In this document: positions 10,262 to 36,002 of the stretch, piece by piece
Numbering within the stretch: the first letter of the stretch is position 1
How the letters are laid out: every line of letters begins with the position of its first letter
Position numbers and translations under genes: made by a program
Notes under the pieces: generated by a model
The model's input: the letters and a program-made list of their open reading frames with translations, nothing else
What the model was told of the DNA's origin: nothing
Database searches by the model: none
Sequence record: AF547987
Length of the DNA: 39,043 nucleotides
From: Shigella phage Sf6
Reading direction: 5' to 3' (one strand)

Positions 10262-11557
10262 ATGGCTACTTGGCAAGGATCAAATGGCGGATTGTTAGCT
10301 GGTATCGGCGGCGTCAACTCAAACGCTCCGAGCGTAAATGACATCGGCAATACGCTTCAGCTTATCAGGCAGAACAATGATATTGAGCGTTCAGGCGCTA
10401 ACAATGTTGGGCTTACTGCTTTGCAAGGCCTTTCAGGCATTGCAGGGGTGTTTCAGCAGGAAAAGCAGGCTCGGCGGCAGAAAGAATTTCAGCAGGCGTA
10501 CGCTAATGCTTATGCGTCTGGTGATCGCGGTGCTTTGCGTCAGTTGGCTACTCAATATCCAGACCAGATTGAATCCGTTCGTAAAGGCATGGGATTCATT
10601 GATGAAGACCAGCGCAATTCTATCGGCACCTTAGCGGCTGGCGCACGCCTTGCGGCCTCGTCTCCAGAAGCAATGCAATCATGGCTGCAAAACAACGCCA
10701 ATGAGCTGGCGCGCGTCGGTGTTGACCCTAATAACGTTGCTCAGATGTATCAGCAGAATCCTTCAGGATTTGGTGAGTTTGTTGATCACCTTGGAATGGC
10801 TGCTCTTGGTCCGATTGATTACTTCAATGTTCAGGACAAGATGGCTGGTCGTGAAATTGACCGAGGTAGGCTGGCAGAGACAATCCGCAGCAATAAGGCA
10901 GGTGAAGCACTAACAGTTCGAGGTCAGGACATCCAGATACGTGGACAGAACATCAGCGCACAGAATGCTGCTCTTTCCCGAGAAATACAAAGAGCAGAAT
11001 TACAAGAAAAGGCTCTGGACAGACAGATAGCCAGAGAAAGCAATCAGTTAAAGCTTGAAGAGCTAAAACAGAAACAGGCAGATGTTCGGCAAAAGGCTGA
11101 CATAGCCCGCGCTGACAGGCAGGCCGCCGCTCAGGGTGCAGTTGATACGTTCAGCACTGCGCTTGATTCTCTCAACGAGATAGAGCAAAGCCCCGGCCTT
11201 TCAAAAGCAGTAGGAATTCGCTCAGCGTTTCCGACAGTTCCTGGCTCTGATGCGGCTAACTTTGAAGCAAGGCTCGATACCTTTAAAGCTCAAACATTCC
11301 TTCCTATGGTGCAGTCCCTGAAGGGTATGGGTGCTCTTTCAGATGCTGAGGGTAAAAAATTATCCGATGCGGTTGGTGCCCTAAGCCCCAAAATGAGTGA
11401 AAAGGCTTTTCGTGACTCTATCGGAAAGATTAGAAATCAGCTTGAAAGCAAGTTGAGCACTGTTAAAAAACAGTTTGATTATCAGGAGCCAGTACAGAAT
11501 ACGCCAGTGCAACAACCTACTACTGGCAGTAACTTTTCTTCACTATGGGGTGATTAA
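10262..11557 (+). CDS. ejection protein (P22 gp20-like)
   Basis: 431-aa ORF; synteny and size. Confidence 0.65.
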   Translation: MATWQGSNGGLLAGIGGVNSNAPSVNDIGNTLQLIRQNNDIERSGANNVGLTALQGLSGIAGVFQQEKQARRQKEFQQAYANAYASGDRGALRQLATQYPDQIESVRKGMGFIDEDQRNSIGTLAAGARLAASSPEAMQSWLQNNANELARVGVDPNNVAQMYQQNPSGFGEFVDHLGMAALGPIDYFNVQDKMAGREIDRGRLAETIRSNKAGEALTVRGQDIQIRGQNISAQNAALSREIQRAELQEKALDRQIARESNQLKLEELKQKQADVRQKADIARADRQAAAQGAVDTFSTALDSLNEIEQSPGLSKAVGIRSAFPTVPGSDAANFEARLDTFKAQTFLPMVQSLKGMGALSDAEGKKLSDAVGALSPKMSEKAFRDSIGKIRNQLESKLSTVKKQFDYQEPVQNTPVQQPTTGSNFSSLWGD

Positions 11558-13554
11558 TGGCTAAAGCATGGAAAGATGTTATCGCCTCTCCACAGTATCA
11601 GGCGTTAGCACCAGAACAAAAAGCGCAGGCTCAGGAGCAATACTTCAATGAAGTCGTGGCCCCGCAAGCCGGAGAAAATGCAGAGCAGGCTAAGCAAGCT
11701 TTCTATGCTGCCTATCCATTGCCATTTGTGCAGTCAGTGGAGACACAGCAACCAGTAGCACAGCAACAACCACAGCAAAGTGGATTTATGTCTGATCTTG
11801 GCGAAGCAGTAAAAGAGACTGGTCGCGGACTGGTGCAGGCTGGCGTGAACGTGGCAAACATACCTGCATCAGTTGCCGATGCTGTAACAAGCGCGGCGGC
11901 TTGGGCTGGCGGTAAACTCGGAATTGGCGATGGGACATATCACCCAGCGCCACGAGTAACAACGCAGGGATTAGAGCAGGACTTTGGCCTTCAGCAAGGT
12001 GCGCTGACTCCACAAACGACAGAGGGAAGGGTATTTGCTGAAGCATTGCCTTACCTCACTCCTGCTGGCGTTGAGAGAGCGGCGATACAGGCACCAACAC
12101 TTGCTGGTCGAATTGCTCAGGGGGCAACTCGCCTTCTAGCAGAAAACGCAGTTGGATCACTTGCTGCAAATAGTGCGAAAGATGATGCGGAAGCACTCGC
12201 CACCGATTTAGGCGTTGGTGTACTTGCTGGCGGTGCTATTAACGCTGCCGGGCGTGGATTAGGTGCTGCTTATCGTGGCGTTCGTGGTGCTATTGCGCCA
12301 GAAGCGCAGCAGGCTATCAGATTTGCAGAGCGTGAAGGTGTTCCTCTGCACACCACAGACCTGTTACAACCCACTTCCCGCGTCGGAAAAATGGCGCAAA
12401 CGACAGCAGAAAATATCCCCCTGGCTGGCACAAGCGGAATGAGAGCAACGCAACAGGAAGCGAGAAGCCAGTTGGTGCAGAGATTTGCTGATAAATTCGG
12501 TGAGTATGATCCAGCGGTTGTTATTGACAGCCTTAAAGCGAAAACATCAGGAATTCGTCGCGCTGCAGGAAATCGACTGGAGCAGGTTCAGAATGCTATG
12601 GCGGGAATAAACATTCAGCCTGCAAGAGCAATTCAGCAGATTGATACAGAAATATCTAACCTGCAGAAGCTTGGTAAGGTTGCTGATAACGAGACTATTT
12701 CAAAACTTCAGTCCTATCGTGATGAGCTTGTTCGCAATGCTGGTCCTGATGGTCCGGTAAATCTGGATTTGAAGCAATTAAGCGATCTGCGCAGCCAGTT
12801 CAGAATGGACGTGAAGGGTGAGCGACCAGTGTTACCAAACCGTTCCGATGCTGCCATTCAGCGCGTTTACAAGGCAATGACCGACGATATCAATGGTGCC
12901 ATTGGTCAGAATCTTGGCAACGATACTCTCCGTAAATATCAGCAGGCCAATGCCGTCTACGCTGACGAAGCGGCTAAACTAAAGAATACCAGGCTGAAGA
13001 ATGTTCTCATGAAAGGCGATCTGACGCCGGAAGTTGTCAACAACATGCTATTCAGCAAGAACAAATCGGAAATTAAGACTCTGTATAACTCAGTTGGTCG
13101 TGTTGGCAGGGCGCAAATGCGCAATGGCATTATTGGAAAGGCGATGGAGAAATCTGGAGGATCCCCTGACCAGTTCCTTCGGCAGCTTAACATCCTGCAA
13201 AACCAGACTGGCATCACATTTAAGGGGCAGGACGCTGCTTATCTGAAAGGATTGAAAAACTACCTGCAATCCACGCAGCAGGCTGCAAAAGCGGCAGTAA
13301 CAACACCAACAGGGCAGCAAACCATCCCGTTCATTATCGGGTATGGGACGGCAATGAACCCTGCAACAACTGGCGCAGCAGTAAGCTACGGACTTCTTAC
13401 TCGCGCCTATGAGAGCGAGCCATTCAGAAATGCAATGCTCAGAATGGCAAACACACCACGCGGATCAACAGCGTTTGAGAAAGCCATGCAGCAGTCGCAA
13501 AAGGCCATTAACGCCCTGACTCAGGGGGCCAAGTCTGATGCGTTGTCAGAATAG
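11557..13554 (+). CDS. ejection protein (P22 gp16-like)
   Basis: 665-aa ORF, start overlaps previous stop; synteny and size. Confidence 0.65.
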   Translation: MAKAWKDVIASPQYQALAPEQKAQAQEQYFNEVVAPQAGENAEQAKQAFYAAYPLPFVQSVETQQPVAQQQPQQSGFMSDLGEAVKETGRGLVQAGVNVANIPASVADAVTSAAAWAGGKLGIGDGTYHPAPRVTTQGLEQDFGLQQGALTPQTTEGRVFAEALPYLTPAGVERAAIQAPTLAGRIAQGATRLLAENAVGSLAANSAKDDAEALATDLGVGVLAGGAINAAGRGLGAAYRGVRGAIAPEAQQAIRFAEREGVPLHTTDLLQPTSRVGKMAQTTAENIPLAGTSGMRATQQEARSQLVQRFADKFGEYDPAVVIDSLKAKTSGIRRAAGNRLEQVQNAMAGINIQPARAIQQIDTEISNLQKLGKVADNETISKLQSYRDELVRNAGPDGPVNLDLKQLSDLRSQFRMDVKGERPVLPNRSDAAIQRVYKAMTDDINGAIGQNLGNDTLRKYQQANAVYADEAAKLKNTRLKNVLMKGDLTPEVVNNMLFSKNKSEIKTLYNSVGRVGRAQMRNGIIGKAMEKSGGSPDQFLRQLNILQNQTGITFKGQDAAYLKGLKNYLQSTQQAAKAAVTTPTGQQTIPFIIGYGTAMNPATTGAAVSYGLLTRAYESEPFRNAMLRMANTPRGSTAFEKAMQQSQKAINALTQGAKSDALSE

Positions 13555-30926: not shown

Positions 30927-31235
30927 ATGGGCGAATCAAGAAAGCAGTTTGAGGAATACGTTGCCAAAAAATTGAGATTACCATTCGAGATGATAACCGA
31001 GGCAAGAAATGGTGATAGGTACTTCGCATTTTCAAGCATGGATATTCGTCACTCCTTAAATGAGTGGTGGACTTTATGGCAGGCATCGCGAGCAGCTATC
31101 GAGATTGAGCTGCAAAAGCCAAAGAAAGGCCCACTTCCCGGTGATTATCACATTGGCTATGACTCAGGTGCAGAATCGCAATACGAAAGCGATGTAGAGG
31201 CTATCCGCGCCGCTGGAATCAAAGTGAAGGAGTGA
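30927..31235 (+). CDS. hypothetical protein
   Basis: 102-aa ORF in nin region. Confidence 0.5.
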   Translation: MGESRKQFEEYVAKKLRLPFEMITEARNGDRYFAFSSMDIRHSLNEWWTLWQASRAAIEIELQKPKKGPLPGDYHIGYDSGAESQYESDVEAIRAAGIKVKE

Positions 31236-31239
31236 GTAT

Positions 31240-31494
31240 ATGTCATTTATCAAATTAACCATGCGATGCAGCATCTATCAGCCACCAAGCACAAGCGCGA
31301 TAGAAAGCACCAGAAGTGCATATGAGCCCTTGTACGTTAATTCTGACAACATCGAAACCCTATTTGATGCCGGATTTACGATTGTAAGAATGGCAAGTGG
31401 TGAGCGGTTCGATGTTATTGAGAAACCAGAAGCTATTTTGGCGTTAATTAATCCATGCGTGCAGAAGGTGAGCCATGAGGAAACGAACGTTTGA
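31240..31494 (+). CDS. hypothetical protein
   Basis: 84-aa ORF with AAGGAG RBS. Confidence 0.5.
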   Translation: MSFIKLTMRCSIYQPPSTSAIESTRSAYEPLYVNSDNIETLFDAGFTIVRMASGERFDVIEKPEAILALINPCVQKVSHEETNV

Positions 31495-31915
31495 ACTAAG
31501 AAGCCCAATTCATCAGCAGAACGCCATTCAAGCTATCCAGCAAATTCTTCCAGACCCAATCAAACCAATCGTAGTAACCATTCAGGAACGCAACCGCAGC
31601 TTAGACCAGAATCGAAAGCTTTGGGCTTGCCTTGGTGACGTCTCTCGTCAGGTTGAATGGCATGGTCGCTGGCTGGATGCAGAAAGCTGGAAGTGCGTTT
31701 TTACAGCAGCATTAAAGCAGCAGGACGTTGTTCCTAACCTTGCCGGGAATGGCTTTGTGGTAATAGGCCAGTCAACCAGCAGGATGCGTGTAAGCGAATT
31801 TGCGGAGCTATTAGAGCTTATACAGGCATTCGGTACAGAGCGTGGCGTTAAGTGGTCAGACGAAGCGAGACTGGCTCTGGAGTGGAAAGCGAGATGGGGA
31901 GATCGGGCTGCATGA
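31475..31915 (+). CDS. ninB: recombination protein NinB
   Basis: 146-aa ORF recognised as lambda NinB (…PIVVTIQERNRSLDQNRKLWA…). Confidence 0.85.
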   Translation: MRKRTFELRSPIHQQNAIQAIQQILPDPIKPIVVTIQERNRSLDQNRKLWACLGDVSRQVEWHGRWLDAESWKCVFTAALKQQDVVPNLAGNGFVVIGQSTSRMRVSEFAELLELIQAFGTERGVKWSDEARLALEWKARWGDRAA

Positions 31916-32439
31916 CTATCAAATCAAATACGCCAGCACACGACAAGGACTGCTGGCAAACGCCGCTTTGGCTTTTTGATGCACTGGATATTGAGTTTGG
32001 ATTCTGGCTGGATTCGGCAGCGAGCGACAAAAATGCTCTGTGTGCTCACTGGCTAACTTAGGCCGACGACGCGCTCAATTCTGAGTGGGTAAGCCACGGT
32101 GCAATCTGGAATAACCCACCGTACAGCAATATCAGGCCGTGGGTGGAAAAAGCCGCTGAGCAGTGCATACAACAGCGACAGACGGTAGTTATGCTTGTGC
32201 CAGAGGATATATCAGTCGGATGGTTCAGCAAGGCTCTGGAGAGTGTCGACGAAGTTCGCATTATCACTGATGGACGGATTAATTTTATCGAACCATCGAC
32301 AGGGTTGGAGAAGAAGGGAAACAGCAAAGGCTCCATGCTGCTGATTTGGCGACCGTTCATCAGTCCTCGACGGATGTTTACTACCGTATCCAAAGCGGCA
32401 TTGATGGCGATCGGGCAGGGCGTCAGGAGGGCGGCATGA
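31912..32439 (+). pseudogene. dam: DNA N6-adenine methyltransferase (phage Dam family) interrupted by an in-frame amber codon
   Basis: One reading frame with WQTP...LFDALDIEFGF...NPPYS motifs; a single TAG at 32059-32061 separates the two track ORFs 31852-32061 and 32143-32439; start overlaps ninB stop, stop overlaps ninE start. Confidence 0.7.
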
Positions 32440-32618
32440 GACGACAGCGACGAAGTATCACCGACATCATCTGCGAAAACTGCAAATACCTTCCAACGAA
32501 ACGCTCCAGAAATAAACGCAAGCCAATCCCAAAAGAATCTGACGTAAAAACCTTCAATTACACGGCTCACCTGTGGGATATCCGGTGGCTTAGAGAACGT
32601 GCGAGGAAAACAAGGTGA
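32436..32618 (+). CDS. ninE: NinE protein
   Basis: 60-aa ORF starting [30 protein letters not shown], recognised as lambda NinE. Confidence 0.8.
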
Positions 32619-32785
32619 TTGACCAAAATCGAAGTTACGAACAAGAAAGCGTCGAGCGAGCTTTAACGTGTGCTAACTGCGGTCAGAAGCTGCATGTGCT
32701 GGAAGTTCACGTGTGTGAGCACTGCTGCGCAGAACTGATGAGCGATCCGAATAGCTCGATGCACGAGGAAGAAGACGATGGCTAA
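32615..32785 (+). CDS. ninF: NinF protein
   Basis: 56-aa GTG-initiated ORF ([26 protein letters not shown]...), recognised as lambda NinF; not in the track. Confidence 0.7.
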
Positions 32786-32878
32786 ACCAGCGCGAAGACG
32801 ATGTAAAAACGATGAATGTCGGGAATGGTTTCACCCTGCATTCGCCAATCAGTGGTGGTGCTCTCCAGAGTGTGGAAC
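32778..32878 (+). pseudogene. ninG: ninG (rap) 5' fragment, truncated by IS insertion
   Basis: [34 protein letters not shown] then runs into the IS911 terminal repeat. Confidence 0.8.
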
Positions 32879-32886
32879 TGAAGTGG

Positions 32887-34091
<1,205 letters not shown>

Positions 34092-34127
34092 CTCTGTTCA
34101 GGTGGCCAAATTCAGTGTGCCACTTCA

Positions 34128-34641
34128 AACCAAGATAGCACTCGAACGACGAAGCAAAGAACGCGAAAAAGCGGAAAAGGCAGCAGAGAAGAAACGACGA
34201 CGAGAGGAGCAGAAACAGAAAGATAAACTTAAGATTCGAAAACTCGCCTTAAAGCCCCGCAGTTACTGGATTAAACAAGCCCAACAAGCCGTAAACGCCT
34301 TCATCAGAGAAAGAGACCGCGACTTACCATGTATCTCGTGCGGAACGCTCACGTCTGCTCAGTGGGATGCCGGGCATTACCGGACAACTGCTGCGGCGCC
34401 TCAACTCCGATTTGATGAACGCAATATTCACAAGCAATGCGTGGTGTGCAACCAGCACAAAAGCGGAAATCTCGTTCCGTATCGCGTCGAACTGATTAGC
34501 CGCATCGGGCAGGAAGCAGTAGACGAAATCGAATCAAACCATAACCGCCATCGCTGGACTGTCGAAGAGTGCAGGGCCATCAAGGCGGAGTATCAGCAGA
34601 AACTCAAAGACCTGCGAAACAGCAGAAGTGAGGCCGCATGA
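34128..34641 (+). pseudogene. ninG: ninG (rap) 3' fragment
   Basis: [16 protein letters not shown]... to the end of NinG; the track ORF 34102-34641 starts inside the IS end. Confidence 0.8.
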
Positions 34642-35493: not shown

Positions 35494-36002
35494 GAGAACT
35501 AAACCTCACCAAAGAACAGCATGAGTGGCTGAATGGCTGGCTTGAACTGTGGGGCGCATGGGTTTATTCAGGTCGTCTGGAAAAGCGCATGAGCAGCGTA
35601 ATAGCGAAGTTCATGGAGAGCGTAGAGCCGGGAAGAGTTATGACAAGGCCAATGTGCAATGATGATGATGGAATGTTGATTTCTCAGGTCGTCGATTCCG
35701 TCATGTACATTGACAAGAAAGCCTTTGGCATCCTCCTCAGCTACTACGCTCATGGTTCATCTAAGCGAGCAATTGCATCCTACTATCACGCGACTGCAAA
35801 GCCACGCAAGATGTGTGGACGTGGTGGCGAGGGATGGAGAAAACCTTCACTGGCAACCTGTAGAAACGAAATTGACGACATCCTGAAAGCGTCATTATTT
35901 GTTTTATACCAGCCAATGCAAAATGCTTTCAAAATGCGTAAACGTGTTGAGAAAGTTAAGCATGTTGCTGTTAAAAGCCTTGACATGCAATTAGCCATTT
36001 AG
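35484..36002 (+). CDS. Q: late-gene antiterminator Q (non-lambda type)
   Basis: 172-aa GTG-initiated ORF directly upstream of pR'; WGAW and CNDDDG motifs resemble the phage 82/DLP12-type Q family rather than lambda Q. Confidence 0.7.

Follow-up and report, generated by a model that had tools for sequence, protein, structure and literature searches.

Gene 51 and its neighbors in the nin region

The window analyzed in this study is the complete stretch of 39,043 nucleotides recorded for Shigella phage Sf6 under AF547987. Its first ORF encodes 140 aa with 100% identity to PDB 4DYC/3HEF, described as "Gene 1 protein / terminase small subunit," and an ORF of 623 aa matches PDB 7SG7, "Gene 14 protein," across all 623 residues with 1414.8 bits, its residues 110-623 also matching the tailspike 2VBK. 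Both pairs, 4DYC/3HEF and 7SG7/2VBK, are Sf6 entries. Gene numbers were mapped from Dover 2016 (Table 2) and the AF547987 coordinates, which coincide with the positions used here; the deletion coordinates given for AF547987 in PMC5630979 include a start at 32177 in "gene 51" and a start at 31676 in "gene 50."

The genes of interest lie on the plus strand. The first of them is ninB (Sf6 gene 50; 31475-31915), which was identified from the ORF list and from the NinB annotation in the homologous regions of SfI and HK97; the identical ninB of three related prophages (L124, L125, and L126, described below) matches PF05772. The TGA stop of ninB overlaps the ATG start of gene 51, dam, in an ATGA at 31912-31915. 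Translation of the sequence gives a dam frame of 175 codons, from the ATG at 31912-31914 to a TGA at 32437-32439, and the sole in-frame stop inside it is an amber codon, TAG, at 32059-32061 (codon 50; ...CAHWLT-stop-ADDALNSEW...). The 5' part of the gene (31912-32061), assigned by translation and by the Pfam Dam profile, consists of 49 sense codons followed by the amber codon, and the 3' part (32062-32439) continues that frame through 125 codons and a stop. NPPY, the catalytic motif IV of N6-adenine methyltransferases, is encoded at 32113-32124, downstream of the TAG. Past the TAG, no in-frame start precedes a GTG at 32143 (codon 78), which lies beyond NPPY and opens an ORF of 98 aa; no called gene with exactly the sequence of this C-terminal ORF is on record. 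The dam TGA in turn overlaps the ATG of ninE (Sf6 gene 52; 32436-32618) in an ATGA at 32436-32439, and an AGGAGG at 32425-32430, 5 nt upstream of the ninE ATG, reads as a putative Shine-Dalgarno sequence. The identity of ninE is based on the SfI note "similar to gene 52 protein of Enterobacteria phage Sf6" and on the PF05322 (NinE) match in L125. A scan of 31000-33000 for promoters and terminators returned no plus-strand sites. The initial annotation had described a continuous frame with a single amber codon upstream of the methyltransferase motif, coupled to ninB and ninE, and both the coordinates and the ATGA overlaps on the two sides bear this out.

An antisense ORF of 170 aa without a Pfam match lies opposite the broken dam (32058-32570, minus strand). 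Gene callers report it instead of dam in L124, L125, and two further prophages discussed below (L127 and L128), and ninE is likewise uncalled in L124 and L127. The antisense ORF is most likely a shadow ORF and as such an annotation artifact. In annotations of this region, it should be ignored, and gene 51 is best marked as a pseudogene.

Downstream, ninG (gene 54) carries IS911 (IS3 family) at 32879-34127, with the transposase genes on the minus strand and a target duplication, AAC, at 32876-32878 and 34128-34130. The empty site is found in L124, L125, L126, and the IMG/VR contig L003, where ...GTGTGGAAC is followed directly by CAAGATAGC... The presence of IS911 in Sf6 gene 54 was already known (PMC5630979). 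In the passage of that paper that cites Casjens et al. [quoted passage not shown] We infer that the former gene is gene 51, since it is the only interrupted gene of the nin region recognized in our homologue comparison, which covered the nin ORFs from ninB onward.

Family membership of the interrupted gene

The initial annotation regarded the product as a phage Dam-type N6-adenine methyltransferase, and the profile searches agree. With codon 50 read as Glu, the protein scores 218.7 bits against PF05869 (Dam; cut-off of 28.1) and 264.4 bits against the equivalog TIGR01712 (phage_N6A_met; cut-off of 97.05), covering positions 1-165 of 165 in the latter. The two halves were also searched separately. 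The 49-aa N-terminal part matches PF05869 positions 1-47 (E = 1.1e-13), the 98-aa ORF from GTG 32143 matches positions 77-167 (E = 8.6e-30), and the frame read through the TAG gives a match to positions 1-167 of 169 (E = 4.9e-65). Because both halves match adjoining stretches of one Pfam Dam profile, the continuity of the frame across the TAG is not a matter of chance. The NPPY motif (N68, P69, P70, and Y71) is invariant across 15 aligned homologues. A search of solved structures by sequence with the Dam protein gave no significant match.

A functional member of the family is expected to have an intact frame of about 165 to 175 codons and, in lambdoid phages, a position in the nin region between ninB and ninE or ninX with overlapping stops and starts. 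Gene 51 has this position, and the order ninB-dam-ninE is likewise found in SfI, HK97, and VT2-Sakai, but its frame is broken by the TAG at codon 50, where the homologues are uninterrupted. By descent, gene 51 belongs to the phage N-6-adenine-methyltransferase family, yet it is a pseudogene.

The closest named counterpart is orf32 of VT2-Sakai (NP_050531.1), which is identical at 174 of 175 residues to the Sf6 protein with Glu50 restored. Like gene 51, it falls into this Pfam and TIGRFAM family and is flanked by ninB and ninE, with stops and starts that overlap. In VT2-Sakai the gene is intact, whereas the Sf6 copy carries E50stop and M100I. Since orf32 is the only DNA methyltransferase annotated in the VT2-Sakai record, it would correspond to M.EcoVT2Dam. 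According to the passage of PMC6602927 that cites Radlinska and Bujnicki 2001, the VT2-Sa prophage enzyme M.EcoVT2Dam "is known to target 5'-GATC-3'." On sequence grounds, gene 51 very probably descends from a Dam methylase acting on GATC. As a separate observation, the 39,043-nt genome contains 90 GATC sites compared with 151.5 expected from its base composition (47.5% G+C), an under-representation of the Dam target of about 0.6-fold.

The dam genes of HK97 (NP_037744.1) and SfI (YP_009147502.1) have 528 nt and about 97% DNA identity to Sf6 gene 51, and the synteny ninB-dam-ninE-ninF is common to the three phages. Both HK97 and SfI have GAG at codon 50 and, unlike Sf6, no IS911 in the adjoining ninG/roi region.

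Original codon and order of decay

The alignment with these intact phage Dam homologues identifies the original codon 50 as GAG (Glu), and the Sf6 lesion is a single G-to-T transversion at 32059. We extracted 107 full-length dam alleles from the fetched loci; all 100 of the loci fetched by the GAG pattern have GAG, which shows only that GAG alleles are common. Compared with the consensus of the 107 alleles, the Sf6 protein differs only by E50stop and M100I, with no frameshift.

An exact look-up of the 49-aa product finds L124, L125, and L126, which are Sf6-like prophages 99.9% identical to Sf6 across about 10 kb. The IMG/VR contig L003 is the same contig as AZPF01000059 of GCA_000566005.1, which is L125. 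The 528 nt of Sf6 dam are identical in L003/L125 and differ by 1 nt in L124 and L126. A single base, G148, separates two intact alleles (L021 and L106) from the TAG allele of L124/L126, and they are set apart from the Sf6 allele by the codon-50 base together with G300A. The TAG alleles form a series: L124 and L126 have TAG with Met100 and no IS911 in ninG, L125 and L003 have TAG with Ile100 and again no IS911 in ninG, and Sf6 itself (AF547987) has TAG, Ile100, and IS911 in ninG. This series gives the order of events as the TAG, then M100I, and then the insertion of IS911 into ninG.

Judged by these alleles, the codon-50 lesion is young and of natural origin, predating the isolation of Sf6. Of the options raised in the initial annotation, a recent nonsense mutation is the one favored by GAG in the homologues and by intact alleles a single base away from the L124/L126 TAG allele. 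The same annotation took the open frame as a sign of selection; we attribute its openness to the youth of the mutation rather than to selection on the interrupted form.

Gene 51 as a pseudogene of a dispensable gene

We therefore suggest, with a probability of roughly 90%, that gene 51 is a Dam pseudogene that arose through the change of Glu50 to an amber codon, that its loss is tolerated, and that the TAG was followed by M100I and then by IS911. We regard it as a recent and probably neutral pseudogene of an accessory gene that is dispensable. In a sup0 host, ribosomes arriving from ninB would initiate at the overlapping ATG and terminate once 49 residues have been made. As this stop lies upstream of the catalytic NPPY, no methyltransferase would be made, the 49-aa fragment would be the only product, and the 3' part of dam would not be translated as Dam. 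A downstream restart that yields an active enzyme was considered and rejected, because the first available start, the GTG at codon 78, is already past NPPY. The ninE gene would probably start on its own strong Shine-Dalgarno sequence, uncoupled from dam, and little polarity would be expected with an N-antiterminated polymerase reading the operon.

Host enterobacteria are expected to have a Dam of their own. The loss of gene 51 is tolerated because the host would supply this activity and because the nin region can be dispensed with under laboratory conditions. Viable Sf6 deletions take out part or all of gene 51 (isolates 1-5, 8-1, 8-6, 8-8, and 9-5), and deletions of this kind even lyse faster (PMC5630979, Table 2), from which it follows that the region is dispensable for lytic growth.

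The broken gene 51 is thus an ordinary pseudogene without a special decoding mechanism and, provided that the nonsense-broken nin gene in the cited passage is gene 51, one that has already been published. What is added here is the ancestral codon, GAG, the order of the decay events, and the presence of the TAG allele in natural prophages free of IS911. A model phage carries a decaying accessory gene, and its null allele circulates in natural prophages.

The same codon in other prophages

The codon-50 TAG (dam position 148) was also found outside the Sf6-like prophages. One case is L127 (dam at 2867-3394), a thrW-linked cryptic prophage, which differs from the corresponding prophage of E. coli SCU-118 (L134, with an intact dam) by one base, dam position 148, across 5370 nt. 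The other is L128 (dam at 2511-3038), another lambdoid prophage, which was seen in six samples. Here the local haplotype around the TAG is another one, differing 6 nt before and 30 nt after the mutated base. The occurrence of the TAG in L127 and L128 is not predicted by a purely neutral one-off mutation alone.

It may be proposed from these two cases that the nonsense codon is favored, for example, because over-methylation by the phage Dam harms the lysogen or the phage, and that it has arisen repeatedly or spread by recombination. The single-base difference between L127 and the otherwise identical SCU-118 prophage, together with the distinct haplotype of L128, speaks for such a selected loss. 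However, the cases were obtained by an exact 49-aa look-up, which finds codon-50 stops only, among very many assemblies, and stops elsewhere in dam exist (codon 35 in L029 and codon 147 in L030). The L127 sequence could be a chimera from bubble-popping during assembly or a gene conversion from a co-resident Sf6-like prophage. Moreover, dam is finely mosaic, with 88 haplotypes among 107 sequences, so that short recombination tracts are normal in this gene, and the TAG allele is rare overall. The TAG in L127 and L128 could have come about by recombination between co-resident prophages, by independent recurrence, or, in the case of L127, as an assembler artifact, and given that ascertainment was limited to codon-50 stops, we do not take it as evidence for selection. 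We consider a selected loss unlikely, at long odds. We see only a slim chance that the codon-50 amber, as a null allele or one with very low readthrough, is nevertheless favored in Shigella and E. coli prophages and recurs or moves horizontally; its presence on two or more dam haplotypes and in three prophage backgrounds would then be accounted for.

Neutral loss of gene 51 remains our preferred reading, and decay of dam in prophages is not rare, considering the stops in L029 and L030; these two premature stops were observed among the 100 alleles fetched by the GAG pattern.

Distribution of the stop codon and dependence on a suppressor

The initial annotation also raised the possibility that expression depends on an amber-suppressor host. 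In this explanation, the amber codon is retained because it restricts full-length Dam to such hosts or, through natural readthrough of UAG, to a very low level. Several properties of the gene are compatible with it: the frame past the TAG is intact, the TAG allele is present in several natural prophages, and residue 50 is naturally variable, being Gln in one homologue and Ile in another (L145 and L146), so that a supE-type insertion of Gln would probably give an active enzyme. A codon retained for controlled readthrough would be expected to be conserved among the homologues, which is not the case. The 26-mer across codon 50 occurs in its GAG version on at least 120 IMG/VR contigs and in its TAG version on one, L003, and the TAG version has no hits in the GTDB species-representative genomes. 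The 61-mer with the TAG has no exact match among 934 places in 5426 complete E. coli genomes or among 173 phage records, the best matches in both sets being 98.4% identical with one mismatch. The intact consensus protein is present on at least 1000 contigs compared with at most 34 for the 49-aa product, some of which are contig-end partials. All 14 homologues from other genera, including Escherichia albertii, Pectobacterium, Rosenbergiella, Providencia, Rahnella, Ewingella, and Raoultella, are uninterrupted and have a sense codon at position 50.

Neither a suppressor tRNA of its own nor avoidance of TAG as a terminator was found in Sf6. The late operon has a tRNA-Asn and a tRNA-Thr at its start, as has likewise been stated for Sf6 (PMC8022706). 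A phage-encoded suppressor tRNA was rejected because these two, tRNA-Asn(GTT) and tRNA-Thr(TGT), are the only tRNAs in the genome. TAG terminates long Sf6 ORFs, for example, those at 11557-13554, 6345-6827, 9102-9557, and 35589-36002. With a rare allele, no suppressor tRNA, and TAG in ordinary use as a terminator, retention of the amber codon for suppression is very improbable, and the proposed dependence on a suppressor host finds no positive support.

As a pseudogene, gene 51 would still be conditionally rescuable, and a suppressor host could well restore its activity. Suppressor-dependent expression in a sup+ laboratory host is possible, and nothing indicates selection for it; growth of Sf6 in laboratory strains with supE or supF could bring back a GATC methylase.

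A natural short form of the protein that ends at the same position, which would have spoken against an interrupted gene, was considered and rejected. The apparent cases (L129 to L133) are genes cut by contig ends, not by true stops. These draft contigs end at dam nt 146-149, within a few bases of codon 50, and the same protein cluster holds N-terminal entries of 36 to 55 aa labeled "partial." The contig ends look like assembly breaks in a multicopy prophage gene rather than a property of this site.

Three contigs of GTDB genomes (L136, L137, and L138; 3.9 to 9.7 kb) carry a dam that is 98% to 99% identical to the Sf6 copy, in MAGs labeled Cellvibrionaceae, Bacillota, and Segatella copri. They are probably mis-binned enterobacterial phage contigs.

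Authenticity of the amber codon

That AF547987 contains a sequencing or assembly error and that the true phage has GAG is a possibility with practically negligible odds, for which nothing speaks except that the difference from the common alleles is a single base, and we reject it because the same TAG base occurs in independent assemblies, namely, GCA_000566005.1 and the Logan assemblies of SRR28283494 and SRR30970149, and in resequenced Sf6 isolates. Illumina resequencing of Sf6 isolates against AF547987 gave only the listed mutations and no other changes (PMC5630979); a sense codon on resequencing, which the initial annotation had named as a finding that would overturn its reading, did not appear.
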